Source: Candidatus Heimdallarchaeota archaeon (lineage in GTDB: Archaea; Asgardarchaeota; Heimdallarchaeia; Heimdallarchaeales; Heimdallarchaeaceae). From it: a stretch of DNA of 24,000 bases. This document shows positions 2,476 through 23,825 of the stretch, one piece after another. A program made the translations under genes and the position numbers. The DNA lies in contig JAUWEG010000002.1 in NCBI GenBank assembly GCA_030608385.1, forward strand, positions 28,879 to 52,878, written 5' to 3'. Below the pieces are notes generated by a model. It did no database searches. It was not told the origin of the DNA and saw only the letters and a program-made list of their open reading frames with translations. Numbering within the stretch: position 1 is the first letter of the stretch; every line of letters begins with the position of its first letter.

Positions 2476-2639
2476 ATTATTATCCCTTTTTTTTGAATTT
2501 AAGAAAACTAAGAATGCTTTGTTTAAAATATTTCCCCAATGTAACTGAAAACAAAAAACTAGTGAACATCAGGATGATTGAAGAAATTGGGGAAAGCATA
2601 ATGAATAAATAATATAGAATGTAGGAATATTAGATAATC

Positions 2640-4181
2640 ATGAACCAAGAAATTGTAGTTCTAGACGGAGATTCCTTAACTATAGATTCTTTGATCGAAA
2701 TTACACGATTTAGAAAAAAAGTTAAAATCAGTGAGGAAGGAACAAGAAAAATAAAAGAAGCAAGGGTAATTATTGAAGCTAAACATGATAAAAACGAAAC
2801 TATTTATGGTGTATCTACAGGTATTGGAAAACTGTCCAATACAATCATTTCTCCTTCTGAAAGAGAAATTCTTCAAAAGAATTTGATCAAATCACATAGC
2901 ATTGGATTTGGTCCTAATCTTCCCGATGAAATAGTTTTAGGTGCCATGGTTATAGAGTTGAATTCATTTTGTAGAGGAGGGAGCGGTGTTCGAATAGAAA
3001 TTACTGAAATGCTTGAAAAACTGATTAATGAGAGAATCATACCTCTTGTACCCAGTATAGGCTCTCTGGGAGCTAGTGGGGATCTCTCACCTCTTGCATA
3101 TATAGCTAGAATTTTGATTGGAGAAGGAAAAGCAAAGTTAGATGGTAAAGTACTCAAAGGTTCCGAAATTCTTGCTGAACTTGATTTGTCTCCTATAGAA
3201 CTTAAAGCTAAAGAAGGATTATCATTAATTAATGGAACACATGTACTAACTTCTTTTGCAGCACATGCTGTTTCTGATTCTATGAATATTTTAGAAAACT
3301 CAGTTATTACAGTTGGTTTAACTTTGGAAGCCTTCGAAGGCAATATTAGTGCATTTTCCTCTTTTATAATGGATTTACGACCACACGTAGGACAAATGAG
3401 ATTCGCTAAAGCTATTTTGGATATTCTTAAGGGCAGTGATTTGCTAAGTAATCAACCAAAAAGAATTCAAGATCCTTATTCTATCAGATGTTCTCCACAG
3501 GTTCATGGAGCGATACTAGATGTTGTAGAGCACTGCAAGAATCTAGTAGAAATTGAAATTAATTCAACAACTGACAATCCTCTAGTCTGCTTAGAAACTT
3601 CAAAAGTTGTTTCTGGGGGAAATTTCCATGGAGAACCTATAGGTCTTGCTATGGATTATTTGTGCATAGCTATGACAGAATTAGGAAATATCTCTGAAAG
3701 AAGGGTAAACCTTTTACTAGATTCAACAATATCAGGACTTCCATCTTTCTTGATACAAAAACCTGGTTTAAACTCAGGTTTAATGATGATACAATATGTA
3801 GATGCAGCGATAGCTGCTGAAAATAAAATATTAGCTTCTCCTGCTTCAATCGATAATATATCAGTTTCAGCTAATCAAGAAGACCATGTTTCTATGGGTC
3901 TCACTGCAAGCAAGAAAGCGTATCAATTAGTCAAGAATGTTGTGCAAATGATAGCCATTGAATTTTATACTGCATATCAAGCATTAGGATTTAAAGAAGA
4001 TTTGAATAATGTTTCTGAAGCTGTACAAGAGATATATGAAATAGTAAGAAAAGATATTCCTCCATTGAAGGAAGATAGATTCTTTGATGAAGAAGTGAAA
4101 TGGATTTCTGAAAGAATAGATAATCAAGTATTTACTAAAATGGTTAAAGATAAAATGGGGCGTATTTTAGGTGATAATTAG
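2640..4181 (+). CDS. MIO-dependent histidine/aromatic amino acid ammonia-lyase family protein (paralog 2)
   Basis: 513 aa. Contains GSLGASGDLSPLAYIA (ASG triad), YGVSTGIG, LSLINGT, QDPYSIRCSPQVHG, GGNFHGEP and NQEDHVSMG, which are closer to canonical HAL blocks than paralog 1. It is divergent from paralog 1 across a 164-nt spacer. Confidence 0.85.
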   Translation: MNQEIVVLDGDSLTIDSLIEITRFRKKVKISEEGTRKIKEARVIIEAKHDKNETIYGVSTGIGKLSNTIISPSEREILQKNLIKSHSIGFGPNLPDEIVLGAMVIELNSFCRGGSGVRIEITEMLEKLINERIIPLVPSIGSLGASGDLSPLAYIARILIGEGKAKLDGKVLKGSEILAELDLSPIELKAKEGLSLINGTHVLTSFAAHAVSDSMNILENSVITVGLTLEAFEGNISAFSSFIMDLRPHVGQMRFAKAILDILKGSDLLSNQPKRIQDPYSIRCSPQVHGAILDVVEHCKNLVEIEINSTTDNPLVCLETSKVVSGGNFHGEPIGLAMDYLCIAMTELGNISERRVNLLLDSTISGLPSFLIQKPGLNSGLMMIQYVDAAIAAENKILASPASIDNISVSANQEDHVSMGLTASKKAYQLVKNVVQMIAIEFYTAYQALGFKEDLNNVSEAVQEIYEIVRKDIPPLKEDRFFDEEVKWISERIDNQVFTKMVKDKMGRILGDN

Positions 4182-10279: not shown

Positions 10280-10591
10280 ATGACCGCTATTTCCCCTCCC
10301 GATGAGATTGATAATTTGTATAACGTGGCTTTATGGATGCGCTCTACAGTACAAGCTTATCAAGATGGTACAATTAATCGCAAACTCACTTCAGGAATGG
10401 CAAAAAAAGTTCTAAGAAAGATAAAGAGCTATATACCAACACAACAAGAAAAAGAACACAAAGAAGCCATTGAAGATCTCTGTATCTCTCTAAGTACTAT
10501 TGACAGAGCAGAGGGTAGTTTTGAAAAGTTTTATTTAGATAGTCTCATAGAGGATTTGGAAAGAATAGCTAAACTATTAGAAGAGGAGTAA
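10280..10591 (+). CDS. Hypothetical all-helical protein, translationally coupled to the downstream small GTPase
   Basis: 103 aa. Its last codons (GAGGAG TAA) double as the Shine-Dalgarno for the GTPase ATG one nt later. No recognisable motif. Confidence 0.5.
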   Translation: MTAISPPDEIDNLYNVALWMRSTVQAYQDGTINRKLTSGMAKKVLRKIKSYIPTQQEKEHKEAIEDLCISLSTIDRAEGSFEKFYLDSLIEDLERIAKLLEEE

Positions 10592-10592
10592 A

Positions 10593-11129
10593 ATGAGTAA
10601 AATTCAACCAGATTACAACTACAAAATTCTATTATTGGGATCCGCTGCTGTTGGTAAAACAAGCTTAGTACAACGATTTGTTCACGACAGATTTGATGGT
10701 TCCTACCTTATGACTATCGGCATGGAACCGTCTGAAAAACACATAGATTTAGAAGATGGAACAAGAGTTGCTCTTTCTATCTGGGATTTAGCAGGGCAAG
10801 AAAGATTTCGTTTCATCCGACACACATTCTACAAAGGGGCAAGAGCAGCATTACTAGTTTATGATTTAACAAGAGCTGCAACTCTCAAAGATGTTCAAAA
10901 GTGGGAAAAGGAATTTGTAGATAACTGTGGTAAAGATGTAATCAAAGTTCTTGTTGGAAATAAAGAAGATTTAAAAAATCAAATTGCTGTTTCAAAAAAA
11001 GAATATGAGGCAGTTCACACAAAAATAAAAAGCCACTACAGCATCATAACAAGTGCGTTAACTGGTAATCAAGTAGAAGAAGCATTCACTAACATTGCAC
11101 AATTATTAGTCAATCAATCAAAAAAATAA
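10593..11129 (+). CDS. Ras-superfamily small GTPase, Rab-like
   Basis: 178 aa. G1 is LLGSAAVGKTSL, G2 is the Thr in YLMTIG, G3 is WDLAGQERF, G4 is GNKEDL and G5 is TSAL. It is collinear with eukaryotic Rab over the whole length. There is no C-terminal Cys (ends NQSKK). Confidence 0.85.
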   Translation: MSKIQPDYNYKILLLGSAAVGKTSLVQRFVHDRFDGSYLMTIGMEPSEKHIDLEDGTRVALSIWDLAGQERFRFIRHTFYKGARAALLVYDLTRAATLKDVQKWEKEFVDNCGKDVIKVLVGNKEDLKNQIAVSKKEYEAVHTKIKSHYSIITSALTGNQVEEAFTNIAQLLVNQSKK

Positions 11130-12437: not shown

Positions 12438-14057
12438 TTACCAAAACCATTTTTCTTCTTTTAAAAGCTGTTGAGCAATTCGATGGCAGATTCTTTCCCA
12501 GAGATATCCTATTAGCTCTACATCACCTAGATTACAATATGGACAACCTGTTGCTCTACGACTTGTTCTGTTATGCGGAGATGTTTTCCATTCATGATCT
12601 GGGTCCTTATCACATTTCCACCAATATCTTTTAGCAGACCCTGCAACGACTTTATCAGGTGTAATCTTCCCATTCTTTTCTTGGTACCATTCTTTAGCTA
12701 GGTCAGGATAGAGTGAGGCTAAGGAATTAGTGACTGAAACCTTCTGTCCAGCACAAAAAGGACAACCACCTCCTGAACTTCTGATTCGATTAGATAGCGA
12801 TGTTTTCCATTCATGGTCTGGACCCTTATCACACTTCCACCAAAATAGTTTCCCCGAGCCTACAACGACTTTATCTGGTGTAATTTCCCCATTCTTTTCT
12901 TGGTACCATTCTTTAGCTAGGTCAGGATGGAGTGAGGCTAAGGAATTAGTGACTGAAACCTTCTGTCCAGCACAAAAAGGACAACCACCACCTGAACTTC
13001 TGGTTCGATTAGCTAGTGTTGCTTTCCACACATGGTCTGATCCTTTATCGCACTTCCACCAAAAATATTTGCTGGATTTTGCTGTAATTTTATCTGGAGT
13101 AATTTCCCCATTCTTTTCTTGGCGCCATTCTTTAGCTAATTCAGGATAACAAGAAGCTAAGGAATTAGTGACTGAAACCTTTTGCCCAGAACAAAAAGGA
13201 CAACCTCTTTTTTGATTCGTTCTTGTATTTGGAGTTGCTTTCCACACATGGTCTGGTCCTTTATCGCACTTCCACCAATATAATTGTCCCGAGCCTGCAA
13301 CGACCTTATCAGGTGTAGTGTCTCCATTCCTTTCTTGGTGCCATTCTTTAGCTAATTCGGAATAACAAGAAGCTAAAGAATTAGTGACTGATAGCTTAAG
13401 GTTTTGGCAGAAAGGGCATCCTGATTTAGTTTTTCCGGTCCTATGTCCTACTTTTGTTTTCCATATGTGATCTGGGCCCTTATCACAGCTCCACCAATAT
13501 GCTTTACTTGTGTTAAATTTCACCATTTCTGGAGTAATTTTTCCATTTTTCTCTTGAAACCATTCATCAATTAATTCAGGAAACACAGTTGACAGAGAAT
13601 TTGTTATAGAAAGCTTTTTTCCTTCACAAAAAGGACATCCGGTCTTTCTCTTTCCTGTTCTATTTCTTATTTCTGTTTTCCATATGTGATCTGGGCCCTC
13701 ATCACAGCTCCACCATACGCTCTTGTGAGAACCAGTTATAACCATGTTTGGTTTTAATTCTTGATTTTTTGTTGGATGCCATTGTTTTGCTAGTCCTGGA
13801 TGAATTGATGCTAAAGAATTAGTGACAGAAGGTTTAAGACCGCGACAAAAGGGACATCTTGTTCTCTTGTAAGTTCTTGCTTCTACTGTGGTTTCCCATA
13901 CATGATCTGGTCCCCTATCACATTTCCACCAAACTTTCTTTTTTGACCACATAGAGGTGTTTTCTGGTTTAAAATCCCCATTTTTTGTTGGATGCCATTG
14001 CTTTGCTAGTTCAGGAAAATCAATTACAAATTTGGGCTTATCTCTATTTTTTGACAT
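12438..14057 (-). CDS. Tandem-repeat zinc-ribbon (treble-clef-like, C-H-C-C) protein with 7 repeats
   Basis: 539 aa. Each unit reads about PELAKEW.QEKNG.ITPDKV...S....WWKCDKGPDH.WK.....R.....GCPFC.GQKVSVTNSLAS. From memory this resembles the Pfam family called probable zinc-ribbon domain (DUF4379), which needs confirmation. Confidence 0.75.
   Translation of the reverse strand: MSKNRDKPKFVIDFPELAKQWHPTKNGDFKPENTSMWSKKKVWWKCDRGPDHVWETTVEARTYKRTRCPFCRGLKPSVTNSLASIHPGLAKQWHPTKNQELKPNMVITGSHKSVWWSCDEGPDHIWKTEIRNRTGKRKTGCPFCEGKKLSITNSLSTVFPELIDEWFQEKNGKITPEMVKFNTSKAYWWSCDKGPDHIWKTKVGHRTGKTKSGCPFCQNLKLSVTNSLASCYSELAKEWHQERNGDTTPDKVVAGSGQLYWWKCDKGPDHVWKATPNTRTNQKRGCPFCSGQKVSVTNSLASCYPELAKEWRQEKNGEITPDKITAKSSKYFWWKCDKGSDHVWKATLANRTRSSGGGCPFCAGQKVSVTNSLASLHPDLAKEWYQEKNGEITPDKVVVGSGKLFWWKCDKGPDHEWKTSLSNRIRSSGGGCPFCAGQKVSVTNSLASLYPDLAKEWYQEKNGKITPDKVVAGSAKRYWWKCDKDPDHEWKTSPHNRTSRRATGCPYCNLGDVELIGYLWERICHRIAQQLLKEEKWFW
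12531..14018 (-). repeat. Seven in-frame tandem repeats of 216-219 nt (72-73 aa) inside the zinc-ribbon gene
   Basis: Units cover protein residues 14-85, 86-158, 159-231, 232-303, 304-376, 377-449 and 450 to about 509. The 54-nt string ggctaaggaattagtgactgaaaccttctgtccagcacaaaaaggacaaccacc occurs exactly at 12717 and 12936, an offset of 219 nt. Confidence 0.9.
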
Positions 14058-15061: not shown

Positions 15062-15454
15062 ATGACAACTGATGATGAACTGGAGAAAATTAAGCAAAGA
15101 AAAGCAAAAGAGTTAATGCAAATTGCTGAACAAAGAAAACAACGAATGGAAGAGTTGAAAGAAGCAAAAGAATCTCCAACAAGTATAGAAGAGAAAGATA
15201 AATTGGCATTAATGCAATATTTTTTGGCTCCAGATGCTTATGATTATTGGATTAATCTCTATGAGAATCTATCTAAAAAACCAACTGCAGAAACAATCTT
15301 CAAAAACGTGTTATATATGATTAAGATTGGTTTTCTTGAGGGAAAACAGATATCGAGATTAGGTGTCAAAAAGTTAGAAAGAGAAATAGAAGGGATTCCT
15401 TCCTCTATAACAATAAAAAGAAAGGGAGAGAAGGAAAAGAGGACAACTTATTAA
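15062..15454 (+). CDS. PDCD5/TFAR19-like dsDNA-binding protein
   Basis: 130 aa. A charged N-terminal helix (DELEKIKQRKAKELMQ) is followed by LMQYFLAPDAYDYWINL...KPTAETIFKNVLYMIKIGFLEGKQIS...LEREI...ITIKRK, which is collinear with archaeal PDCD5 homologues. Confidence 0.55.
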   Translation: MTTDDELEKIKQRKAKELMQIAEQRKQRMEELKEAKESPTSIEEKDKLALMQYFLAPDAYDYWINLYENLSKKPTAETIFKNVLYMIKIGFLEGKQISRLGVKKLEREIEGIPSSITIKRKGEKEKRTTY

Positions 15455-15563: not shown

Positions 15564-15800
15564 GTGAGAATAACTGTAGTAACAGCAATTGGTGGAGGAA
15601 AAATAGATTTAGATGTTGATCCACATTCAACAGTTGCACAATTAAAGAGAGAAGTTGCTAAAAAGAAGAAAATTCCTGCTAACACAGTCATTATAGTTTT
15701 CCATGGTAAGCAACTCGATGACAGTGAAATACTAAAACAAACAGGAATGATGGATGGCGATAAATGCTATCTTATTGCTAGAACTAAAGGTGGACTTTAG
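15564..15800 (+). CDS. Ubiquitin-like beta-grasp protein ending in Gly-Gly-Leu
   Basis: 78 aa. MRITVVTAIGGGKIDLDVDPHSTVAQLKREVAKKKKIPANTVIIVFHGKQLDD...YLIARTKGGL is collinear with ubiquitin (M.I.V.T..G..I.L.V.P..T....K......IP......F.GKQL.D), with a diglycine one residue before the stop. The start is GTG, with AGGTG 8 nt upstream. Confidence 0.8.
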   Translation: MRITVVTAIGGGKIDLDVDPHSTVAQLKREVAKKKKIPANTVIIVFHGKQLDDSEILKQTGMMDGDKCYLIARTKGGL

Positions 15801-15939
15801 TTTTATCTAAACACTTCTTTTAATTTAGTTTTCTTTCATAAAAAGCTCTTTTTATAGATTTTCTCGTTGTTTTCAGTGTGATAGTAAAAAGAAACTTATA
15901 TCAGTTCTTTCTATGTGAGTCATTCAAGGAGTTCATTAA

Positions 15940-16944
15940 ATGGATGGAGATGAGCGCTACTCAAGACAACAACTTATCCCAGGATGGGATCAACTAAAAC
16001 TTGACAATGGTTCTGTTGTTCTAGTGGGGGTTGGAGCAATAGGGAGCTATGTAGCTACTGTACTTGTCTCTTCAGGAATAGGGAAACTTACGATTATTGA
16101 TTTTGATACAATTGAAGTTTCGAATCTAAATCGACAATTATTGTTTAAAGACGAGGATGTTGGTAAATCAAAATCAGAAACAGCTGTACAAAGATTGAAA
16201 GAAATAAATCCCAATATCGAAATTGATTTTTATCATAAAAAGATGGAGAATATTTCTGCATCAGTTTATGAGCAAGCAAATGTCATAGTAGCATGCTTAG
16301 ATACTTTTATTGGAAGAAGATGGATCAATTCGATGGCTATTCGAGTAAAAAAACCACTTGTTATGGGGGGTATGTTTGCTTTCTTAGGTAATGCACAAGT
16401 AATTATTCCATATGAAACAGCGTGTTTTGAATGCCAGCCTTTGGTACCAGATGAAGAGTTAGCTCAAGCATGCTCTCCATTTGGGGATGAAAGGAAAAAA
16501 GAGAGAAAAGAAATTGATGCAGAGCCACCTTTACCAGCTGTTGCCACATTATCATCAATTATTGGGGGAATAATGGCTCAGGAAACACTAAAGTTAATTC
16601 TGGAATTAGGTGAAAAATTGGAAAATTATCTTTTCTATGATGGTCTTCATAATGCTACAACAATTCTAGAATTAGAAAAATCCAAGGAATGTCCAGCTTG
16701 TGGCGAGATGTACAAATTAGAACAAATCGAGTTTGTAGCGCTTCCAACTGAAACTGTAAAAGAACTCAGAATGAGATTAATGTTGACTTATGGGTTAGAA
16801 AAACCAGACCTAATGGTGCAAGGAAAACTGTTAGAGGTTGAATCATTACTTGAAGATGCACTGGATTCGAAAAAGGCTATTGTATTCGTTCTAGACAAGA
16901 ATTTAGCTCAACCAATCAAAATAGTTTTGCAATTATCTGAATAA
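15940..16944 (+). CDS. E1-like ubiquitin-activating enzyme (ThiF/MoeB/UBA adenylation fold) with a C-terminal extension
   Basis: 334 aa. Contains YSRQ, the VGVGAIGS nucleotide loop, DFDTIEVSNLNRQ, two CxxC pairs (CFEC 162-165, CPAC 251-254) and a lone Cys178 (QACSPFG) between them. About 80 aa follow the second CxxC. AAGGAG lies upstream of the ATG. Confidence 0.85.
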   Translation: MDGDERYSRQQLIPGWDQLKLDNGSVVLVGVGAIGSYVATVLVSSGIGKLTIIDFDTIEVSNLNRQLLFKDEDVGKSKSETAVQRLKEINPNIEIDFYHKKMENISASVYEQANVIVACLDTFIGRRWINSMAIRVKKPLVMGGMFAFLGNAQVIIPYETACFECQPLVPDEELAQACSPFGDERKKERKEIDAEPPLPAVATLSSIIGGIMAQETLKLILELGEKLENYLFYDGLHNATTILELEKSKECPACGEMYKLEQIEFVALPTETVKELRMRLMLTYGLEKPDLMVQGKLLEVESLLEDALDSKKAIVFVLDKNLAQPIKIVLQLSE

Positions 16945-16985
16945 TCTGATCTTTTTCGCTTTTCAAATGCAACATTTTTTAAACT

Positions 16986-18434
16986 TTGATTGGTATGAAG
17001 TTATTTAGAGAAATAATTAGAAAGGTGAACAAAATTTCCACAGACGATTTCCATCTTGCAAATGAAATGCAATTAGTATTCGATAAACAAATAAATTTCG
17101 AACCAGTTAGAGGTAATTTGAAACAATGGAAAGGCTATGTTGGAACAATAGAAGGTACTGAAATACCAATTTTTGCCAACATTTACATTCAGGATGGTTT
17201 CCCTGAAATACCTCCATTTGTTGATATTACTCCTAAAGTAAATCACCCTAATGTTGATGAAGATGGTACATTAAGTATGCGTCTTCTTGCAGAATGGGAA
17301 CCTAGGTATCATATTTATCAAGTTATGATTGATATAAAACAACTTTTCATCAATGTTCCTGCTAAAGCATACAAGACAAAGACTAAGAAACCAAAAGGGG
17401 AACAAAGATTTTCAACATTACCAAGAGCAACAATTCCTGTGAAGACAATACCTCAAGCATCTTTCGCAAGTATAAATCCAAGAATTGAGGAAGAAAGACG
17501 CTCCATTGACAAAACAATTGTCAATTATCAAGATAAAATAGAGCATATTTCCAGAGATATAGAAAAAGAAAGAAAAGCTTTATTGAAGGAAGGCGGAATA
17601 GCTGTACAAAGTAGAACTAAAGAGATTTCTATATCATTAAAAGAGGATTTGAGAGCTGAATCATTAGCTGTCCAAGATACTCTAGAAATAGTACAAGAAA
17701 AATTTGATGATGGCGATATGACTAATATTGATTACCTCAAATTACATAAAAGATATACCAAAAAAGGTTTTATAGCTGAGAAACAACTCACTCAAGTTAA
17801 AAGTAGCTCAAGTGGTGACATGACAAAAGCAGAAGAAAAAATATTGAATTTGGAAGCTGATCTGTTTGCTTCAATTGCAACTTTAGACAATCTAGTTCTA
17901 AGTTACGAAAAAAGTGAAATTGAGCAGATTGCTTATAGAAAACAACTTCGTGCTCTCATTAGAGGAATTTTCAAAACAAGATTAGAATTAGAAAAGATAG
18001 GCTTTAATTTAGATGATTTTGTGAAACGAGAGAATCTAAATAATAGATATCAAAAGGGAATCAAACAACTCATGGTTGTTGAAGGGGAAGAAACTGCAGA
18101 TACCAGTTCAATTCCATTTGATACCCTCAAGAAAATCCCATCTAAAACAGCTGATTTCGTTTCATCTGCGATTGAACTTATTGATTTAACTAGATTAAAA
18201 TCAGTAGCTAGAGCAGATCTCATAATTGCAGACATTGAAGAAATGATTCACATTCTGACAACATTTCCTTCAATACCAAAAGACCATTGGGTTATTGGAG
18301 ATATGAATAATTGGCGTGAAATTATAGGAAAATATAAGCCTCAGGAGATCATTAAAGAAGAAGATTGCGAAAAATTAGAATTTCAAGCAGCTCGTTGGTT
18401 AAATGACTTTCGAAGAGTATTGAAAGAACTTTAA
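16986..18434 (+). CDS. ESCRT-I-like fusion protein: N-terminal UEV/E2-fold domain, coiled-coil stalk, full Vps28 (core plus C-terminal domain)
   Basis: The UBC-fold block FPEIPPFVDITPKVNHPNVDEDGTLSMRLLAEWEP is comparable to the E2 consensus HPNI...G.ICLDIL...WSP, with Ser97 (AGT 17274-17276) at the Cys position. Residues about 170-280 are heptad-rich. Residues 281-482 are collinear with human VPS28: ADLFASIATLDNLVLSYEKSEIEQIAYRKQLRALI matches [35 protein letters not shown], and DLIIADIEEMIHILTTFPSIPKDHW...WLNDFRRVL matches PDLRELMETMHRMSHLPPDFEG...AYNAFNRFL. The likely real start is the ATG at 16995. Confidence 0.75.
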   Translation: MIGMKLFREIIRKVNKISTDDFHLANEMQLVFDKQINFEPVRGNLKQWKGYVGTIEGTEIPIFANIYIQDGFPEIPPFVDITPKVNHPNVDEDGTLSMRLLAEWEPRYHIYQVMIDIKQLFINVPAKAYKTKTKKPKGEQRFSTLPRATIPVKTIPQASFASINPRIEEERRSIDKTIVNYQDKIEHISRDIEKERKALLKEGGIAVQSRTKEISISLKEDLRAESLAVQDTLEIVQEKFDDGDMTNIDYLKLHKRYTKKGFIAEKQLTQVKSSSSGDMTKAEEKILNLEADLFASIATLDNLVLSYEKSEIEQIAYRKQLRALIRGIFKTRLELEKIGFNLDDFVKRENLNNRYQKGIKQLMVVEGEETADTSSIPFDTLKKIPSKTADFVSSAIELIDLTRLKSVARADLIIADIEEMIHILTTFPSIPKDHWVIGDMNNWREIIGKYKPQEIIKEEDCEKLEFQAARWLNDFRRVLKEL

Positions 18435-18498
18435 TATCAACAAAAGACTTGAAAATTTCTAGATTCCTTTCTTTCCATTCTTTAAGATAAGTTGCTAG

Positions 18499-18813
18499 GT
18501 GAATTACTTGGAAAGAACTAGCTCTATTAACGAGATATTTGTTAACATTCGAAAAGAAATGTTTGAATTAATCAACATGATAGAGATTAAGATAGATGTG
18601 GGCTATATTCTTGAGGAATTAGAAGATATTTCATACGAAATTAAGAATTTAGGAGAAGAAGGGAAGCAAATCCATGAAGAAATGATGAATATTTACAATT
18701 CGTATTTTAACAAATATAAAAACAAACTTGCAGCTTTTCTTTCACCAAGGGAGAGCAGCTCTTTAACTGAAAAGATAAAGAAATGGCTTTTAGAATTATC
18801 AAACATTATATAA
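18499..18813 (+). CDS. Hypothetical small helical protein between the ESCRT-I and ESCRT-II genes
   Basis: 104 aa, predicted helical from composition. AGGTGA overlaps the annotated GTG, so an in-frame TTG at 18508 is an alternative start. No recognisable motif. Confidence 0.45.
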   Translation: MNYLERTSSINEIFVNIRKEMFELINMIEIKIDVGYILEELEDISYEIKNLGEEGKQIHEEMMNIYNSYFNKYKNKLAAFLSPRESSSLTEKIKKWLLELSNII

Positions 18814-18882
18814 TAATCATTTAATCAATTAATTTGAGAAGATATAAATAAGTCCTAGACAATAACAAAGCTGGAGATAGAA

Positions 18883-19608
18883 GTGGGTTTAAGAGATATA
18901 GAGAAGAAGATCAAAATTAAGTCAGCTTTTCAAGTAAAAGCGGCAGAGCTAATGATTAAAGAATTAGAACAAATGATAAATAATATTAGCGAAGTCAAAA
19001 AACAACTGAAAAAGTTTGAGAAAAAATACGGTGATAAAATCTCTGAAAATAAAGATTATTATGATAAATTAGCAAATCTGAGAGAAGAACTAGGATTACC
19101 CACCGAAATTGGACGTTTTGACTGGAAAGAAACTCCAACTCTCAAAGATAAACTTACTGGAAAGGGCTTCTTTGATGTATTAGCTAATGAAATTCTTGAA
19201 ATAGGGCAACAGATGATATCAGAAAACGGTGGAATTATGGCCATCGGAGAACTATTCACACAGCTAAATAAAACTCGTCCTGGGAGGATGGTTTCAATTG
19301 ATGATATGTATCGATCCTTGGAGAAATTAATCAATACTCAATTAATCCCACCATATAGAGTGTTAGATTCAGGATTGAAGATTGTTGAATTTGTTCCTGT
19401 TGAGTTTAGTCCAGATCATGATGTTATTCTAAATTATGCATCCAGAGTTGGTTTTGTTACAAAGGAAGATTTACTCATGAGAACAAGTTGGACTGAAGAA
19501 CGAATAGATAGATGTTTACAATTCTTTGAAGAAAATAGCATAGCTCGAGTTGACAGGAGTTATTCTGAAGGCGTGAAATATTGGTTTCCCGGTTTAATGG
19601 GACTATAA
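18883..19608 (+). CDS. ESCRT-II EAP30-domain protein (Vps22/Vps36-like): N-terminal helix plus tandem winged helices
   Basis: 241 aa. GGIMAIGELFTQLNKTRPGRMVSIDDMYRSLEKL...LDSGLKIVEF...ILNYASRVGFVTKEDLLMRTSWTEERIDRCLQFFEENSIARVDRSYSEGVKYWFPGL follows the EAP30 pattern (GG.i.l.e.y...N..R....vSp.D...a...L ... w.D.......Y.F). GTG start with GGAG 6 nt upstream. Confidence 0.75.
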   Translation: MGLRDIEKKIKIKSAFQVKAAELMIKELEQMINNISEVKKQLKKFEKKYGDKISENKDYYDKLANLREELGLPTEIGRFDWKETPTLKDKLTGKGFFDVLANEILEIGQQMISENGGIMAIGELFTQLNKTRPGRMVSIDDMYRSLEKLINTQLIPPYRVLDSGLKIVEFVPVEFSPDHDVILNYASRVGFVTKEDLLMRTSWTEERIDRCLQFFEENSIARVDRSYSEGVKYWFPGLMGL

Positions 19609-19625
19609 TTCAGAAAAAGAACAAA

Positions 19626-20402
19626 CTAAAACACTTTATCAGCTTCAAACTGAATTATTGTTTTTTCTTTGTTTAACCAACGAGCAACTTTACGTTCTAC
19701 TAGCATTTCGCACACAATAACAAGATCATCAGCAGGCAAATTTCCCCAATTTTGTTCCAGCTGAGTTAAATCGTAAAGTGAGTGTATTTCAACCACTCTT
19801 CCAGTATCTATCATGAAGTCTACTAACGCATCTGCCCATTCTTCATTTGATTTCCAATAAATGCGAGCCCTTGTTTTTGTTTTCTCATCTAACCAACGAG
19901 CAATATTCTGTTGAACTAAATGATCAACGATACTTCTTACTTGTGCAAGAGTTAATCGCTTACCTAAATTTTTGTTATTGAAGGGGTGACCACTTCTCAA
20001 ATCGTTAATATTAATTATGTGAATCACAAAAATACGGGAGTAATCCAATACTATCGCAGACCAACTTTGGAGCCATGATTCAATTTGATCAGTTTTCTTA
20101 GGCTTGATATACATCCATGGCCTTTTTACCCATTCTGGAAGTTCTTCCTCAAATTCTAATTCAAGCATAGCCCTTTGATCTTTAGAGAGATCTTCTTTTA
20201 CAAAAATAGCATCAACAGGCAGAGTAGCTTTTAATTCTTCAGCTGTAATCTCCAAACCTTTAATACTAGCTTCAATTAATTTTAATTTCTCATCTGAAAT
20301 CTCTTTTTCATCTTTTAATTTTTTTAAATCTATTTCAGATGATTTCTCCTTCTTAGGCTTCTTCTTCTCAGTGGTGGACATGGATTTAACCTCTAAAATC
20401 AT
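19626..20402 (-). CDS. ESCRT-II Vps25-like protein (two winged helices) with a charged N-terminal extension of about 90 aa
   Basis: 258 aa. RPWMYIKPKKTDQIESWLQSWSAIVLDY...HPFNNKNLGKRLTLAQVRSIVDHLVQQNIARWLD...RARIYWKSNEEWADALVDFMIDTG...LYDLTQ...LVIVCEMLVERKVARWLN parallels Vps25 (F..QPN..TR..QL..W..LIL.Y ... F.N..I.R.L ... G.AEW.D ... I.W....EWA..I). The start overlaps the Vps4 stop (ATGA). Confidence 0.7.
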   Translation of the reverse strand: MILEVKSMSTTEKKKPKKEKSSEIDLKKLKDEKEISDEKLKLIEASIKGLEITAEELKATLPVDAIFVKEDLSKDQRAMLELEFEEELPEWVKRPWMYIKPKKTDQIESWLQSWSAIVLDYSRIFVIHIININDLRSGHPFNNKNLGKRLTLAQVRSIVDHLVQQNIARWLDEKTKTRARIYWKSNEEWADALVDFMIDTGRVVEIHSLYDLTQLEQNWGNLPADDLVIVCEMLVERKVARWLNKEKTIIQFEADKVF

Positions 20403-21553
20403 GCGCTGCCGAATTCTTCATTCCAGTTATCGTATTTTTCTATTTCATCATCACTTACAGAGGGGTTAATTGATTCAATTGCTTCAAGAAAATCATCTTG
20501 AGTTACTGCCCGAGCAGCTATTGAAGTATCTTCAATAGCTCCTGCCATGTCAAGTTCTCTGATTGGAGTCATGATTGCTTCTCTACATACCATTGCAATA
20601 TCAGAACCTGAATAACCTTCTGTAATTTCTGCTAGAACTTCGAAATCTGCATCTTCAGCTAGTTCAACACCCTTGGTATTGAAAACAAAAATAGCTTCAC
20701 GAGCTGGTAAATCTGGTAAAGGAATGTAAATCCTTCTCTCGAATCTTCTTCTGAATGCTCCGTCTATAGATTCAGGCATATTAGTAGCACCAACAGTAAC
20801 TATTCTGTCAGTTTCGGAACTCGATAGACCATCCATTGATGTTAAGAGCTCAGTTTTAACTCTACGCATTGCATCATGTTCTCCACCTCTGGCACCAGCT
20901 AAAGCATCAACTTCATCAATAAAAATAATACTGGGTTGTTTTTCGTCTGCTAATTCGAAAAGCTGTTTAACCAATTTTTCTGATTCACCAAGCCATTTTG
21001 AAATGATTGAGGATGCACTAACATTGAAGAAAGTTGCTTCTACTTCAGCTGCTGTTGCTTTTGCTAAAAGAGTTTTACCACAACCAGGGGGACCAAAAAG
21101 CAAAATACCTTTCCAAGGTTTTCTTGCTCCAGAGAATAAATCAGGTCGCATAAGAGGTAAAACAATAGCTTCTCTCAAGGTTTGCTTTGCGGTTTCTAGA
21201 CCTGCTATATCAGCTAAAGTAATATTTGGTTTCTCTGTAACGATTATATCAGATATAGCATTTTCTAATTTTTCTTCCTCATCATCACTTCCTGCTTTGG
21301 ATTTCCTTTCTTTTCTCTTCTCTAGAAGTTCCCTTAGTTCCCTTGCTCTACTAATGTACATATTGGCTTTCTTCTTAAGAGAACGAGCAACTTGAGGGTT
21401 TCTTTCAAATTTTATGGCTTTCATTAAAGCTTCAGCAGCATCTAAATAGTGTGGAATAGCTTCACTGTAGTTTTTTTCTTTATCAAAGGAATAGGCTTTG
21501 ACTGCAAAATCCCTTGCATGATCTATTAATCCTTGAGCAGACACGTGATTCAC
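20399..21553 (-). CDS. vps4: Vps4-type AAA+ ATPase with N-terminal MIT domain
   Basis: 384 aa. The MIT-like three-helix N-terminus reads AVKAYSFDKEKNYSEAIPHYLDAAEALMKAIKFE...KANMYISRARELRELLE. Also present are Walker A GPPGCGKT, pore loop SKWLGESEKLV, Walker B IIFIDEVD and second region of homology GATNMPESIDGAFRRRFERRIYIPLP. Confidence 0.9.
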   Translation of the reverse strand: MNHVSAQGLIDHARDFAVKAYSFDKEKNYSEAIPHYLDAAEALMKAIKFERNPQVARSLKKKANMYISRARELRELLEKRKERKSKAGSDDEEEKLENAISDIIVTEKPNITLADIAGLETAKQTLREAIVLPLMRPDLFSGARKPWKGILLFGPPGCGKTLLAKATAAEVEATFFNVSASSIISKWLGESEKLVKQLFELADEKQPSIIFIDEVDALAGARGGEHDAMRRVKTELLTSMDGLSSSETDRIVTVGATNMPESIDGAFRRRFERRIYIPLPDLPAREAIFVFNTKGVELAEDADFEVLAEITEGYSGSDIAMVCREAIMTPIRELDMAGAIEDTSIAARAVTQDDFLEAIESINPSVSDDEIEKYDNWNEEFGSA

Positions 21554-21678
21554 AACCTCTATCTATTTATTCCATTTATCTAATATAAAATGTTTCATTT
21601 TGTTTCATACCAACTTGATAAATTTCATTGTACGGATTGTAAGAACTAACAAAAATAAAAATATAAAAAGTGGAAGAA

Positions 21679-22329
21679 TTACTTATCTTCACTCATTTTC
21701 TTCTTTAATCCCTCAAGCTCAGCTTCAAGCTCTGATGTATCTTCTTCTTTGTCAGTTCCAACAGGAGTTGAAGGAAGACCACTAACATCAGGTAAGCTTG
21801 TTGTTGTACCTAAATCCATCTCAGCTTCTAACTGAGCTAACTGCTCATCAATAGCTGCATCATCTTCAAAATCTAGAATGCCTTCAGATAAGCTTGGATC
21901 AGATAGAGCTTCAGTCATCATTTCAATTTGATCTCTCTGTTCCATTACAGAATCCATAACACGTTCTGTTCTCTCAGGAGAAACGCTTTTGATTTTCTCT
22001 CCAACAACTTTTGTACCAAGTTCCATAGCTTTTACAGTCTCTGCTGTTGAAGTAGCTGTTTGTATACTATCTATCTGAGCTTGTAAATTCATTCCTGTGT
22101 TATGAACTGTATTCAGCCTTTTCATGAAAACGGCTCTTCTTTTTAGAGCTTGTCTTGCTCCAGCTTTATTACCAGCTTTTAGCATTTTTGAGGCTAAGAT
22201 TTTCTGTTCATCTGATTGTCTTTCAAGATTTCTTGCTTCTGCTTGTAATCTGTTTTGTTGTCCTTTGAGTGTGGATAATGCATCAGCATCTTCTTTTCTT
22301 TTTTTTCCAAAAAGCCAATTCTTAACCAT
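21679..22329 (-). CDS. ESCRT-III subunit, Snf7/CHMP4-like (Vps20/32/60 group)
   Basis: 216 aa, collinear with CHMP4: GARQALKRRAVFMKRL matches AALQALKRKKRYEKQL, IDSIQTATSTAETVKAMELG matches IEFQREALENANTNTEVLKNMGYA, and MDSVMEQRDQIEMMTEALSDP...EDDAAIDEQLAQLEAEM matches LMQDIADQQELAEEISTAIS.P...DEDELMAELEELE. AAGGTGA lies 6 nt upstream of the ATG. Confidence 0.85.
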   Translation of the reverse strand: MVKNWLFGKKRKEDADALSTLKGQQNRLQAEARNLERQSDEQKILASKMLKAGNKAGARQALKRRAVFMKRLNTVHNTGMNLQAQIDSIQTATSTAETVKAMELGTKVVGEKIKSVSPERTERVMDSVMEQRDQIEMMTEALSDPSLSEGILDFEDDAAIDEQLAQLEAEMDLGTTTSLPDVSGLPSTPVGTDKEEDTSELEAELEGLKKKMSEDK

Positions 22330-22342
22330 TTTTATTCACCTT

Positions 22343-22957
22343 TTAATCCTCTTCTCTTCTTCTTAATTTCTGAATTTCATCCTCTAAATCATCTGTTTGC
22401 ACTACACCAACTGTTGGTAATCCAGCTTGAGTGGAAACACCTAATTCAGCAGCTGTTTGTTCAATTAACCTATCGACTTCAGCTGGATCAGTATCAGCAA
22501 TCAGTAAATCGTCAATACCATCTTCAATAGTTCCGGTTGACTCTTCGATTCCATCAATGGAACTTTCCATATCTTGAATAACTCTATCTAAATCTGGAAT
22601 CTGTAATTGAGCATTTGCGATTCGTAAAGCAGAAGCAATACCATGCATTTCTTCAGCCATGCTTGCTGCAGTATCAGCTCGTTCTAATTTAAAGATTAGG
22701 CCATTCATACGCGAAACTAGTTTCTGATAACCAAATTCCCATCTTCTGTTGCGTACAATATCAGTAGCAAATAATCTTGCAGATTCCAAATCTCCTCGTT
22801 GGATGTTTTGTTTCATTTTCAACTGCATTTTGGATTCATCTCGAGAAAGTTTCCTTTGTGCTCTTTCTAATCTTCTTACAGTTAATCGAAGATTAATTAT
22901 ATGATCACGAGGACTCTTCTTTGTACCCAAAAGCCAACCCATAAAGTCACGGAACAT
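22343..22957 (-). CDS. ESCRT-III subunit, CHMP1/Did2-like (Vps2/24/46 group) with a C-terminal MIM1-like helix
   Basis: 204 aa. HIINLRLTVRRLERAQRKLSRDESKMQLKMKQNIQRGDLESARLFATDIVRNRR is collinear with CHMP1B [54 protein letters not shown]. The C-terminal DDLEDEIQKLRR resembles the MIM1 DELSQRLARLR. Confidence 0.85.
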   Translation of the reverse strand: MFRDFMGWLLGTKKSPRDHIINLRLTVRRLERAQRKLSRDESKMQLKMKQNIQRGDLESARLFATDIVRNRRWEFGYQKLVSRMNGLIFKLERADTAASMAEEMHGIASALRIANAQLQIPDLDRVIQDMESSIDGIEESTGTIEDGIDDLLIADTDPAEVDRLIEQTAAELGVSTQAGLPTVGVVQTDDLEDEIQKLRRREED

Positions 22958-23118: not shown

Positions 23119-23418
23119 ATGCGTTTTCAAAAGAAATCTAAAAGAAATTTTGCATTTATGACAATAATAACAAGTTTGGTGATTCTTGCTTCAAAAACTG
23201 CTTTAGCTCAAGATGGAGATTTAACTCCCATTGGTGCAGCACTAGCAGTTGGAATAGCTGGAATTGGAGCAAGCATAGGTATGGGTATGGCAGGTAGTGC
23301 AGCCATAGGTGCTATTGTGGAAAAACCTGAAGTTTTCGGAAAAGCTTTTCTCTTCATAGTGTTGATTGAAGCTGTGGCTATTTATGGTCTACTAGTAGCT
23401 ATCCTACTTGTATTCTAA
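23119..23418 (+). CDS. atpK: A/V-type ATP synthase proteolipid (subunit K/c), single hairpin, with an N-terminal signal-like extension
   Basis: 99 aa. GAALAVGIAGIGASIGMGMAGSAAIGAIVEKPE...FLFIVLIEAVAIYGLLVAILLVF has the Gly-rich helix 1 and the carboxylate Glu in helix 2. The N-terminus MRFQKKSKRNFAFMTIITSLVILASKTALAQD looks like a signal or anchor sequence. Confidence 0.8.
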   Translation: MRFQKKSKRNFAFMTIITSLVILASKTALAQDGDLTPIGAALAVGIAGIGASIGMGMAGSAAIGAIVEKPEVFGKAFLFIVLIEAVAIYGLLVAILLVF

Positions 23419-23444
23419 TCCCATCTCTTTACTCTCCTTTTTTT

Positions 23445-23825
23445 GTGATAATTATGACAGAAGAAAATAAGGCCTTAAAATCTCCAGCAGGGATTAAACT
23501 TGCGTCATTGAAGGATTTAGTGAGATTAGTTATTTCAAGTGTAGGACCTGATAGAATCGTTGGTTATATAGGGCATTTTAAGGAAGCAGATAGGACAATA
23601 TATTTCGTTTTTAATACAAGTCTAGGATATTACGAACTTAATGCACTTCCAATAATTGTGTGGACTGACGAAGAAGAAATGCCTACAAAATCATTCATAA
23701 GATATAAATCAGCAACAAATGAAACAATTGAATTCTCTAATGATGCAACAGATCCTAAATGGTTAAGCATACCAATTGTAAATTTTGAGATAATGCCTGA
23801 ATTTCTCAAAGTATGGAAGAATTAG
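23445..23825 (+). CDS. Hypothetical protein
   Basis: 126-aa ORF, or 123 aa from the ATG at 23454. Mixed alpha/beta composition, no motif recognised. It does not resemble ATP synthase subunit E, C or F. Confidence 0.4.
   Translation: MIIMTEENKALKSPAGIKLASLKDLVRLVISSVGPDRIVGYIGHFKEADRTIYFVFNTSLGYYELNALPIIVWTDEEEMPTKSFIRYKSATNETIEFSNDATDPKWLSIPIVNFEIMPEFLKVWKN

Follow-up and report, generated by a model that had tools for sequence, protein, structure and literature searches.

The eukaryotic ESCRT pathway comprises, in yeast, Vps23/28/37/Mvb12, Vps22/25/36, Snf7/Vps2/24/20/Did2, and Vps4, while the Cdv system of TACK archaea is built from CdvA, CdvB, and CdvC. The closest described system to the locus analyzed here is that of Candidatus Heimdallarchaeota archaeon AB_125 (HeimAB125_14010-14070 and the ubiquitin HeimAB125_14240). 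Yeast two-hybrid links among the ESCRT-I, -II, and -III proteins of AB_125 have been reported, its Vps22 (HeimAB125_14050) is a homodimer, and its ESCRT-I fusion protein (HeimAB125_14070) binds ubiquitin (PMC9192718). A membrane-remodelling sequence of ESCRT-IIIB and ESCRT-IIIA (PMC11804906) and membrane fission by ESCRT-IIIA and Vps4 (10.1101/2025.11.28.690958) have also been described for this organism. In published trees, Asgard Vps4 and ESCRT-III proteins group with those of eukaryotes (PMC10936438; PMC11804906), and Makarova et al. 2024 listed 'Vps28_C' as separate genes in Asgard clusters.

The window (the whole 24-kb stretch of DNA analyzed) contains a ubiquitin–ESCRT cluster of nine ORFs at 15564-22957, five on the plus strand and four on the minus strand, arranged as convergent strings. 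All nine lie exactly at the coordinates given in the original prediction, and the two strings meet tail-to-tail as it described, with 17 nt between the stop codons (19609..19625) as read from the sequence. The minus strand of this gap is T-rich (TTTGTTCTTTTTCTG) and may serve the minus-strand genes as an oligo-T terminator. Families were assigned by Pfam profile search with curated gathering cutoffs, and scores are given below as bits/cutoff. Eight of the nine proteins exceeded the cutoff, in agreement with the families proposed for them beforehand.

Gene order and orientation are identical to those of AB_125, a separate genome within this family that diverges by 4-15% at the amino acid level. 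Amino acid identities to AB_125 are 96% for ESCRT-IIIA, 98% for ESCRT-IIIB, 92% for Vps4, 88% for Vps25, 91% for Vps22, 85% for a small four-helix protein, 86% for UEV-Vps28, and 100% over 77 residues for ubiquitin. The AB_125 cluster is cut by a contig end, so that its ubiquitin and E1 are on another contig, whereas the whole supercluster is contiguous in the present genome. Identical gene order and 85-100% protein identity were found in six Heimdall MAGs (AB_125 and five other Heimdallarchaeaceae MAGs), and the same order recurs in the more distant genome L010. We are highly confident that the region represents a Heimdallarchaeaceae ubiquitin-ESCRT supercluster, gene-for-gene orthologous to the AB_125 cluster. 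The cluster is real, complete, and biologically important; it is not a new discovery, because work on a near-identical cluster has already led to purified proteins, solved structures, and reconstitution. The "unusual details" ascribed to this instance are common to all relatives and are therefore not peculiar to it. The statement that the function of such loci is largely untested is correct for living cells but not in vitro, where the AB_125 orthologs have been characterized biochemically and structurally.

The plus-strand string begins with a ubiquitin-like modifier of 78 aa (15564..15800) that matches PF00240 (53.8/25.4, aligned from residue 3) and ends in RTKGG-L. Its residues 1-77 are identical to HeimAB125_14240, the ubiquitin used by Hatano et al., and its GTG start and an upstream AGGTG Shine-Dalgarno-like motif are identical in four orthologous loci. 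The single residue after GG varies among orthologs (L, S, Y, F, or none), which implies that C-terminal processing is needed. The following gene (15940..16944, plus strand) encodes an E1-like activating enzyme of 334 aa with a ThiF adenylation domain (210.6/28.1 over residues 10-252), a Zn tetrad, a crossover-loop Cys, and a C-terminal ubiquitin-fold domain; residues C162, C165, C178, C251, and C254 do not vary across 28 Asgard homologs. The AF2 model (pLDDT 84.5), in which residues 263-332 form a beta-grasp-like unit, finds its best Foldseek matches in UBA3 of the NEDD8 E1 (TMq 0.76-0.78, versus 0.64 for ThiF/MoeB), and by this model the enzyme has a UBA3-like ubiquitin-fold domain. As in UBA3, the catalytic subunit of the NEDD8 E1, an adenylation domain is combined with this C-terminal domain. 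Unlike UBA3, the present E1 is a single chain, no APPBP1-like partner is encoded close by, and the large catalytic-cysteine domain is replaced by a short crossover loop, modelled with low confidence (residues 170-196), that holds the invariant C178. Profile scans of the window proteins found no E2, RING E3, or deubiquitinase encoded within the 24 kb, so the sequence by itself does not demonstrate a conjugation cascade. The window showed neither ESCRT-0 nor a Bro1 protein.

ESCRT-I is encoded as a fusion of 482 aa (16986..18434, plus strand) comprising a UEV domain, a coiled-coil stalk with a steadiness-box-like segment, and a full Vps28. The protein matches UQ_con (44.3/27, residues 35-123) and VPS28 (37.2/24.5, residues 291-479), while UEV (20.5 bits) and Vps23_core (20.3 bits, residues 221-263) remained under their Pfam cutoffs. 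Alignment with RAD6-type E2s places Ser at the catalytic Cys position (HPNVDEDGTLSMRLL), and the sole Cys of the protein is at residue 461, outside the UEV domain; it is therefore a UEV and not an E2. Both the UEV-Vps23-Vps28 fusion and the Cys-to-Ser replacement are common to AB_125 and the present genome. Two ESCRT-II proteins were identified. The Vps22-like (EAP30) protein of 241 aa (18883..19608, plus strand; EAP30 73.7/26.8) scores higher among PDB sequences with SNF8/Vps22 (66 bits) than with Vps36 (29 bits), and it falls into one 90%-identity cluster with HeimAB125_14050. The Vps25-like protein (19626..20402, minus strand) carries an N-terminal extension of ~90 aa before its ESCRT-II domain (75.9/27 over residues 98-217), and among PDB entries it matches 7PB9 ('Tandem WH domains of Vps25') best.

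The remaining minus-strand genes encode Vps4 and two ESCRT-III proteins. Vps4 (20399..21553, 384 aa) is an AAA+ ATPase with MIT (46/30), AAA (144.8 bits), lid, and Vps4_C (37.4/21.3) regions, and it matches yeast and human Vps4 with 306-327 bits. Its score against the CdvC equivalog (317.7 bits) is far under the cutoff of 650, which, together with the published trees, upholds the earlier placement of the locus in the Asgard ubiquitin-ESCRT class and not with TACK Cdv. The ESCRT-IIIB protein (21679..22329, 216 aa; Snf7/Vps20/32/60 class; Snf7 81.6/27.3) is most similar in the PDB to 9FTL, 'Heimdallarchaeota archaeon AB_125 ESCRT-IIIB' (E 1.3e-127), followed by yeast Snf7. The ESCRT-IIIA protein (22343..22957, 204 aa; CHMP1/Vps2/24/46 class; Snf7 63.1/27.3) has an N-terminal amphipathic helix and includes five N-terminal residues missing from the AB_125 UniProt entry; its best PDB matches are CHMP1B, CHMP1A, and CHMP2A. 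The PDB matches agree with the "Snf7-like" and "CHMP1-like" labels first given to the 216-aa and 204-aa proteins. The C-terminal segments LPDVSGLP and LEAELEGLK of ESCRT-IIIB may be MIM2-like and MIM1-like motifs, respectively, and LEDEIQKLR of ESCRT-IIIA may likewise be MIM1-like.

The locus shares with eukaryotic ESCRT a UEV ubiquitin reader, a Vps28 domain, the winged-helix ESCRT-II subunits Vps22 and Vps25, ESCRT-III proteins of both A and B types, and a Vps4 with MIT and Vps4_C domains. It differs from the eukaryotic system in having ESCRT-I as one fused chain without Vps37 or Mvb12, no Vps36 (GLUE/NZF) with Vps22 as a homodimer (PMC9192718), only two ESCRT-III paralogs, and a free-standing Vps28-CTD-like protein. 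With TACK Cdv the locus has in common an ESCRT-III-family member and a MIT-bearing ATPase of the Vps4 family; in contrast to Cdv, the ESCRT-III proteins here are too short for the C-terminal winged helix of CdvB, ubiquitin, E1, ESCRT-I, and ESCRT-II are present, and CdvA was not found among the scanned window proteins.

On this basis we propose how the encoded machinery might work. The ubiquitin-like protein, made with one extra residue after GG, would be trimmed by a hydrolase encoded elsewhere and then adenylated by the E1-like enzyme, whose modelled UBA3-type ubiquitin-fold domain would hand it over to E2s encoded elsewhere. Ubiquitylated cargo would be recognized by the catalytically dead UEV of the single-chain ESCRT-I (UEV-Vps23 stalk-Vps28), consistent with the ubiquitin binding of the AB_125 ortholog. 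The Vps28 end would touch ESCRT-II (the Vps22-like homodimer and Vps25), probably aided by the adjacent Vps28-CTD-like four-helix protein. As for the AB_125 orthologs in vitro, Vps25 would nucleate ESCRT-IIIB at the membrane, ESCRT-IIIB would recruit ESCRT-IIIA, and ESCRT-IIIA would tubulate the membrane and, while Vps4 turns it over with ATP, sever the membrane by means of its N-terminal amphipathic helix; the MIM-like C-terminal tails suggest that they are engaged by the Vps4 MIT domain. In Asgard cells the machinery may sort ubiquitylated cargo, instead of or alongside roles in division, vesicle release, or membrane repair.

Among the readings that compete with this proposal, the weightiest is that the ESCRT part serves mainly division, abscission, or extracellular-vesicle release, with ubiquitin a mere regulator (e.g., modifying ESCRT-I) and not a cargo tag. 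We regard this as unlikely, yet deserving of real weight: TACK archaea, sister to the Asgard-eukaryote clade in the Vps4 tree, divide by ESCRT-III and Vps4 (PMC10936438), ubiquitylation of the Asgard UEV-Vps23 steadiness box itself has been reported in a preprint (10.1101/2023.07.25.550441), and nothing in the window identifies a cargo. However, the locus encodes ESCRT-I and ESCRT-II together with a ubiquitin-binding UEV and keeps them linked to the ubiquitin and E1 genes, the scanned proteins include no CdvA, and roles in division and in ubiquitin-cargo handling are not mutually exclusive. Far less probable is that the ubiquitin-like/E1 pair is a sulfur-carrier system (MoaD/ThiS-MoeB/ThiF or SAMP-UbaA) located beside ESCRT genes by chance. 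The small modifier matches the ubiquitin family itself and not ThiS/MoaD, the E1 has its nearest structural match in UBA3, not in MoeB/ThiF, and lacks a rhodanese domain in the Pfam scan, the AB_125 ubiquitin binds the neighbouring UEV (PMC9192718), and the Ub-E1-ESCRT-I adjacency is kept in five loci. These observations outweigh the best NCBIfam matches of the E1 (MoeB/ThiF/UbaA models, all under cutoff), its public annotation as adenylyltransferase/sulfurtransferase, the lack of an E2 or E3 nearby, and the lack of ubiquitin/E1 among the called ESCRT-flanking genes of Baldrarchaeia and another Heimdall-labelled locus whose flanks were retrieved.

The small gene between vps28 and vps22 (18499..18813, plus strand; 101-104 aa), an ortholog of HeimAB125_14060, had been described as a "104-aa helical orphan." About 45 homologous 90%-identity clusters show that it is no orphan; it belongs to a conserved, position-fixed Asgard family with a Vps28-C-terminal-domain-like fold (13 representatives among 1.84 billion proteins). 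It has no match in Pfam (the VPS28 model included), NCBIfam, or PDB sequences, and a profile-profile comparison (hhalign) with the Vps28 CTD of its own lineage found no similarity; its top Foldseek match, the Vps28 CTD 2J9W (TM 0.67-0.70 over 97-99 columns, probability 0.96-0.97), has an E value of just 0.27, and four-helix bundles are common. That it lies outside the ESCRT system, as an unrelated passenger gene or an artefact of gene calling, is nevertheless quite improbable. The AF2 model is confident (pLDDT 91.5, four helices), with the same size and topology as the Vps28 CTD (2J9W/2J9U), and 29 synonymous and 15 non-synonymous changes relative to AB_125 (5 and 1 in codons 1-20) indicate purifying selection. 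Its place in Heimdall, Baldrarchaeia, and other loci is always between vps28 and vps22, even where the rest of the cluster has been reshuffled and UEV-Vps23 is encoded apart from Vps28, and Makarova et al. describe Vps28-C domains as genes of their own in Asgard clusters. Its sequence has no detectable similarity to the Vps28 CTD, and it stands beside an already complete Vps28 domain in the fused ESCRT-I protein. The fold and gene position suggest that the protein probably assists the Vps28–ESCRT-II contact. The long form of the gene is the real one, and public 84-aa annotations are too short. As for the host, a Loki-type (Promethearchaeia) archaeon was originally proposed, in keeping with the low GC (about 0.30-0.39) and Asgard gene content. 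This was rejected and is as good as impossible: the named cluster mates and the six syntenic genome loci (85-100% amino acid identity), AB_125 included, are all labelled Heimdallarchaeota/Heimdallarchaeaceae, and the UEV-Vps23-Vps28 fusion is the Heimdallarchaeota arrangement, with separate genes in Loki (PMC9192718).

The four GTG starts and one TTG start noted earlier are as in the ORF track, and all five are conserved in orthologous loci, but the TTG of UEV-Vps28 is probably misplaced. Relative to AB_125, codons 1-13 of this gene show 0 synonymous and 6 non-synonymous changes, compared with 7 and 4 in codons 14-60, and this pattern makes GTG 17025 the probable start rather than TTG 16986. 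Upstream, a non-coding block (CTTTTCAAATGCAACATTTTTTAAAC; 16959..16984, plus strand) is invariant in six loci, while the 32 nt from the block to GTG 17025 vary; the block is possibly a BRE/TATA promoter. Vps25 probably starts at its second ATG (20381, 251 aa), because in two orthologs, those of L008 and AB_125, codon 6 is an in-frame TAA; this ATG is preceded by a GAGGT motif, and the cluster of the protein contains 251-aa members. With two of the proposed starts probably misplaced and no significant excess of non-ATG starts (5/9 in the cluster versus 3/17; Fisher p=0.078), the suggested "dosage tuning" is unsupported. The GTG of the Vps22-like gene and its upstream GGAG are conserved in six loci. 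The start of Vps4 is either its first GTG or the GTG that forms codon 4, and both, with the 60 nt upstream, are nearly invariant in six loci (57/60 nt identical between the window and AB_125). A conserved BRE/TATA-like element in this region (GAAACATTTTATATTA; 21581..21596, minus strand) may be the vps4 promoter. The present genome also carries an extra 539-aa 7xDUF4379 gene ~1.5 kb upstream, which is absent from some relatives.

Nine open reading frames at 15564-22957 make up the locus. The plus strand carries five of them (15564-19608) and the minus strand the other four (19626-22957), and the two strings run tail to tail with 17 nt (19609-19625) separating the facing stops, as described in the original prediction. 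Profile searches upheld the predicted family names for 8 of the 9 proteins, which match the corresponding Pfam families above gathering scores, with the candidates for ESCRT-I and for ESCRT-II among them. The plus strand encodes a ubiquitin-like protein (from 15564; PF00240, 53.8 bits), an E1-like protein (from 15940; ThiF, 210.6 bits), UEV-Vps28 as one 482-aa protein (from 16986; UQ_con, 44.3 bits, and VPS28, 37.2 bits, each above the cut-off), a 104-aa ORF with zero Pfam matches (18499-18813), and a Vps22-like protein (from 18883; EAP30, 73.7 bits). The minus strand, listed from its lower coordinates, encodes a Vps25-like protein (19626; ESCRT-II/Vps25, 75.9 bits), the ATPase Vps4 (20399; MIT, AAA, AAA_lid, and Vps4_C), and two ESCRT-III proteins of 216 aa (21679; Snf7, 81.6 bits) and 204 aa (22343; Snf7, 63.1 bits). 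Within the fusion, the UEV (20.5 bits) and Vps23_core (20.3 bits versus a cut-off of 26.8) models score below cut-off, and the steadiness box is visible solely as the sub-threshold Vps23_core match. Scanning the window for Rfam families and tRNAs gave no matches.

The locus is a real and correctly classed Asgard ubiquitin-ESCRT supercluster of the Heimdallarchaeaceae/AB_125 type, AB_125 being a Heimdallarchaeota reference genome. It combines a di-glycine ubiquitin, a fused UEV ESCRT-I, Vps22 with Vps25, and A- and B-type ESCRT-III with Vps4, in the synteny of the class. It also obeys the general gene-direction rule of Makarova et al. 2024, under which vps25 lies with vps4 and ESCRT-III, and vps22 with vps23 and vps28 (PMC10936438). 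Seven of the nine proteins are present identically in public collections by exact-sequence look-up, and their cluster mates at 90% identity are named Candidatus Heimdallarchaeota or Heimdallarchaeaceae; those from AB_125 include OLS31932 (HeimAB125_14010) and OLS31936 (HeimAB125_14050). A genome scan with ESCRT-I recovered six loci, all in Heimdallarchaeota MAGs at 86-96% identity. In tblastn searches with all window proteins, these loci had the gene order and orientation of the window as far as their contigs extend, at 85-100% amino acid identity. The common order on one strand is PIG-L, a PDCD5-like gene, ubiquitin, E1, UEV-Vps28, the small gene, and Vps22; on the converging strand it is Vps25, Vps4, ESCRT-IIIB, and ESCRT-IIIA, with an ATPase c-subunit gene thereafter. 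Compared with AB_125, identity is lowest for the small protein (85%) and reaches 98% for ESCRT-IIIB, and the same layout recurs in a more distant locus (L010) whose small protein is 45% identical. The UEV-Vps23-Vps28 fusion is itself the Heimdallarchaeota arrangement (PMC9192718). Because all close relatives are Heimdallarchaeota or Heimdallarchaeaceae with identical synteny, the Loki-type host that had been deduced from AT-richness is wrong.

The distinction from the TACK Cdv system drawn in the original prediction holds. Vps4 scores 317.7 bits on the NCBIfam CdvC equivalog NF041006 against a cut-off of 650, and no CdvA-like match was found in any window protein scanned. TACK CdvB has a C-terminal winged helix, whereas in the window ESCRT-III proteins the Snf7 domain occupies residues 19-183 of 204-216 aa and the remainder consists of short acidic MIM-like tails. 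The failed CdvC cut-off and the lack of room for a CdvB winged helix place the locus outside the TACK Cdv type. Published trees group Asgard Vps4 with eukaryotic Vps4, with the TACK clade as sister (PMC10936438), and connect the Asgard pair of ESCRT-III proteins with the B and A paralogs of eukaryotes (PMC11804906). The placement of Vps4 and ESCRT-III given here is based on the CdvC cut-off, the best PDB matches, and these published trees of the AB_125 orthologs, which are 92-98% identical.

Comparison with PDB resolved the subfamilies. The 204-aa ESCRT-III is nearest to CHMP1B, CHMP1A, and CHMP2A and is therefore A-type, while the 216-aa protein matches 9FTL (Heimdallarchaeota archaeon AB_125 ESCRT-IIIB; E 1.3e-127) and next yeast Snf7, which makes it B-type. 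Both proteins terminate in a motif of the form Lx3[LI]x2L[KR] that we read as MIM1-like, and ESCRT-IIIB carries in addition a putative MIM2-like stretch, LPDVSGLP. The EAP30 protein scores 66 bits to Vps22/SNF8 versus 29 bits to Vps36, and the Vps25-like protein matches 7PB9 ("Tandem WH domains of Vps25"), 3CUQ_C, and human and yeast Vps25. The E2-like domain of the fusion aligns with RAD6/UbcH5-type E2s and retains the HPN motif; its catalytic Cys is replaced by Ser (HPNVDEDGTLSMRLL), and the sole Cys of the fusion is residue 461, with none in residues 1-460, so the domain is a UEV and not an E2. Four Heimdallarchaeaceae homologs (P0131, P0132, P0137, and P0138) are stand-alone Vps28 proteins of 204-205 aa that share 41-78% identity with the Vps28 portion of the fusion; these represent either unfused vps28 in some members of the family or a fusion gene split by assembly.

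The ubiquitin ends in ...RTKGG plus one residue and is identical over all 77 mature residues to AB_125 ubiquitin (Hatano et al. supplement). Among otherwise near-identical orthologs the residue after GG is L, S, Y, F, or none, a variability that implies trimming of a precursor. The E1 has 334 aa, including about 80 residues past ThiF, and is kept at full coverage among homologs labeled Heimdall, Kari-, Thor-, Freya-, and Promethearchaeota. Its invariant cysteines are a Zn tetrad (C162, C165, C251, and C254) and C178. The AlphaFold2 model (pLDDT 84.5) contains a beta-grasp-like unit at residues 263-332 and is most similar to UBA3 (TMq 0.76-0.78), the NEDD8 E1 subunit with a ubiquitin-fold domain; ThiF and MoeB reach 0.64. 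The closer match to UBA3 argues for a conjugation-type E1 rather than a sulfur-transfer enzyme. The protein thus has the layout of a canonical eukaryote-type E1, with an adenylation domain, C178 as the putative catalytic Cys, and a C-terminal ubiquitin-fold domain, supported by the beta-grasp unit and the UBA3 matches, that would recruit E2s; a separate large Cys domain is lacking. A 417-aa metagenomic homolog of the E1 (P0260) carries PF00240 and ThiF in one chain, which makes it a natural ubiquitin-E1 fusion in the near kin of the window E1.

Apart from the dead UEV, no E2, and no RING E3 or JAB/MPN deubiquitinase, was found among the window ORFs scanned. Cascade genes beside the cluster are typical of some Asgard loci and do not define the Heimdall type. 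The bona fide E2s of AB_125 are encoded elsewhere in its genome (PMC9192718).

The finding is already known, and the locus is closely orthologous to the most thoroughly studied member of its class. Hatano et al. 2022 described the Heimdallarchaeota UEV-Vps23-Vps28 fusion HeimAB125_14070, which, like its isolated UEV, binds cognate ubiquitin via the hydrophobic patch; they also showed that the Vps22 homolog HeimAB125_14050 forms a homodimer and mapped yeast two-hybrid links among ESCRT-I, -II, and -III (PMC9192718). Souza et al. 2025 solved ESCRT-IIIB filaments and showed that ESCRT-IIIB recruits ESCRT-IIIA, which tubulates membranes (PMC11804906). The class is highly important as the prokaryotic forerunner of ubiquitin-directed membrane remodeling and a leading piece of evidence for an origin of eukaryotes from Asgard archaea, Heimdall in particular. 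Because the near-identical AB_125 ortholog already models Asgard ESCRT biochemistry, the instance in the window adds little to this. It does offer the whole supercluster in one contiguous stretch, with ubiquitin and E1 joined to ESCRT-I/II/III, which the AB_125 assembly splits across contigs, and it points to the small four-helix protein, the single cluster member still without an experimental role.

Although this protein (18499-18813) had been called an orphan, its family numbers about 45 clusters at 90% identity; the members are 84-104 aa long, mostly 101 aa, and an acidic motif, IDVGYILEELEE, is invariant. A profile search of 1.84 billion representatives returned just 13 family members, all small stand-alone proteins, with source labels of Heimdallarchaeota, Baldrarchaeia, Hodarchaeota, Odinarchaeota, and "Asgard group". 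AlphaFold2, given a 26-sequence alignment, confidently predicts a four-helix bundle (helices 3-29, 34-49, 53-73, and 83-103; pLDDT 91.5, pTM 0.81). Its top two Foldseek matches in PDB are both chains of 2J9W, the Vps28 C-terminal domain (TM 0.67-0.70, RMSD 2.7-3.0 Å over 97-99 columns, probability 0.96-0.97, but E 0.27), and generic or designed four-helix bundles rank close behind. The 2J9W structure is that of the paper on the ESCRT-I-II link. Searched as a single sequence and as a 26-sequence profile, the protein gave chance-level matches only in Pfam, NCBIfam, and PDB, and none of the 26 family members matches the VPS28 Pfam model at E<=10. That the protein is a sequence paralog of the Vps28-CTD of the fusion was rejected at the sequence level by hhalign, leaving the similarity of fold alone: against the Heimdall Vps28 alignment the family has a probability of 0.4%, where the Vps28-CTD profile is of limited depth because searching for homologs of the Vps28 portion of the fusion gave 8 close matches only.

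Gene context is the strongest evidence on the small protein. Its gene lies between vps28 and vps22 in every locus examined, and this placement holds in Baldrarchaeia and in a divergent Heimdall-labeled genome, both of which encode UEV-Vps23 and Vps28 separately and have the remaining cluster rearranged. On the predicted model and this setting, the protein would be Vps28-CTD-like by fold and context. Makarova et al. remarked that some Asgard genomes encode the Vps28 C-terminal domain separately besides a full vps28 (PMC10936438), and the small gene fits this remark and may be one such case. That the small four-helix protein serves as a dedicated bridge between ESCRT-I and the Vps22 homodimer, replacing the eukaryotic Vps28-CTD/Vps36 NZF contact, is a tentative idea that we consider rather unlikely; if true, the fixed position, the acidic motif, and the lack of Vps28 sequence similarity would mark a distinct Asgard-specific ESCRT component.

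The GTG and TTG starts named in the original prediction agree with the ORF track, and ortholog comparison refines them. For ubiquitin, the GTG is invariant, with AGGTG 9 nt upstream, homology from residue 1-3, and no alternative start; for Vps22 it is also invariant, with GGAG upstream. Both GTG starts are solid. The start region of Vps4, GTG-AAT-CAC-GTG, is invariant, and a GAGGT motif stands 2 nt away from the first GTG (21553) and 11 nt away from the second (21544), on their upstream side; either may therefore serve as start. In the small gene an in-frame TAG precedes the GTG, and most homologs start at the position of the TTG (codon 4) of the window, giving 101 aa. The AB_125 member, HeimAB125_14060, is annotated as an 84-aa "hypothetical protein". 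Codons 1-20 differ from AB_125 at 5 synonymous sites and 1 non-synonymous site, and F14 is invariant in the family, which indicates that the long form is translated and that the 84-aa public calls are truncated at the N terminus; experiments so far may thus have missed or mis-built the protein.

In UEV-Vps28 the TTG is invariant, yet a 26-nt block upstream of it is equally so, and the codon-4 ATG is unique to the window genome (ATC or ACC in others). Relative to AB_125, synonymous and non-synonymous changes number 0 and 6 in codons 1-13 but 7 and 4 in codons 14-60. Both the AB_125 annotation and the functional full-length construct of Hatano start at the codon-14 GTG (MNKISTDDF...), and a start at this GTG (17025) is better supported. 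In Vps25, a TAA at codon 6 in two orthologs puts the conserved start at the second ATG (20381, 251 aa), which has GAGGT in front of it. The ATGA overlap with vps4 seen in the window is only apparent and is not kept among orthologs. These corrections to the starts of the small protein, Vps25, and UEV-Vps28 matter for construct design. Dosage tuning by non-ATG starts, which had been suggested, is without basis, since their frequency (5/9 in the locus versus 3/17 elsewhere in the window) does not differ significantly (Fisher p=0.078) and two of the claimed starts are probably not real.

The ESCRT-I gene, vps4, and ESCRT-IIIA each have a conserved non-coding block of BRE/TATA-like sequence upstream; these blocks may suggest several transcription units rather than two long operons. 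The 17-nt convergent gap (19609-19625) is T-rich on the minus strand only. On the plus strand, a T-run is first met at ~19660-19676 (TTGTTTTTTCTTTGTTT), within the 3′ end of vps25, so plus transcripts would probably extend into the convergent gene by some 50 nt or more.

Directly 5′ of ubiquitin, a 130-aa protein (15062-15454, plus) is kept in all Heimdall loci. Without a Pfam match itself, it is 40% identical (E 7e-15) to a PF01984 dsDNA_bind/PDCD5-like gene adjoining vps22 in a Baldrarchaeia ESCRT cluster, so that a PDCD5-like gene adjoins the ESCRT cluster in two Asgard classes. A 539-aa protein with seven tandem DUF4379 "treble-clef zinc finger" repeats (12438-14057, minus; PF14311, 431 bits) is missing at the orthologous position in two related loci (L006 and L007) and partially matched in another (L004), a patchy distribution that makes it a variable insertion, placed immediately upstream of where the conserved block lies. 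At 10280-11129 (plus), a 178-aa Ras/Roc/Arf-like small GTPase (PF00071, 156 bits) starts 2 nt past the stop of a 103-aa protein without a known domain, and in L006, L007, and L010 the pair is conserved just as far from the ESCRT cluster. At 23119-23825 (plus), past the putative promoter region of ESCRT-IIIA, lie an A/V-type ATPase proteolipid c subunit (PF00137) and a 126-aa protein that is conserved but of unknown function, as they do in all related loci. Further away, at 952-4181, two divergent, back-to-back paralogs of the HAL/PAL family of aromatic amino-acid ammonia-lyases (both strands; PF00221, 524 and 575 bits) stand before a metallophosphoesterase and an aminotransferase of the DegT type.
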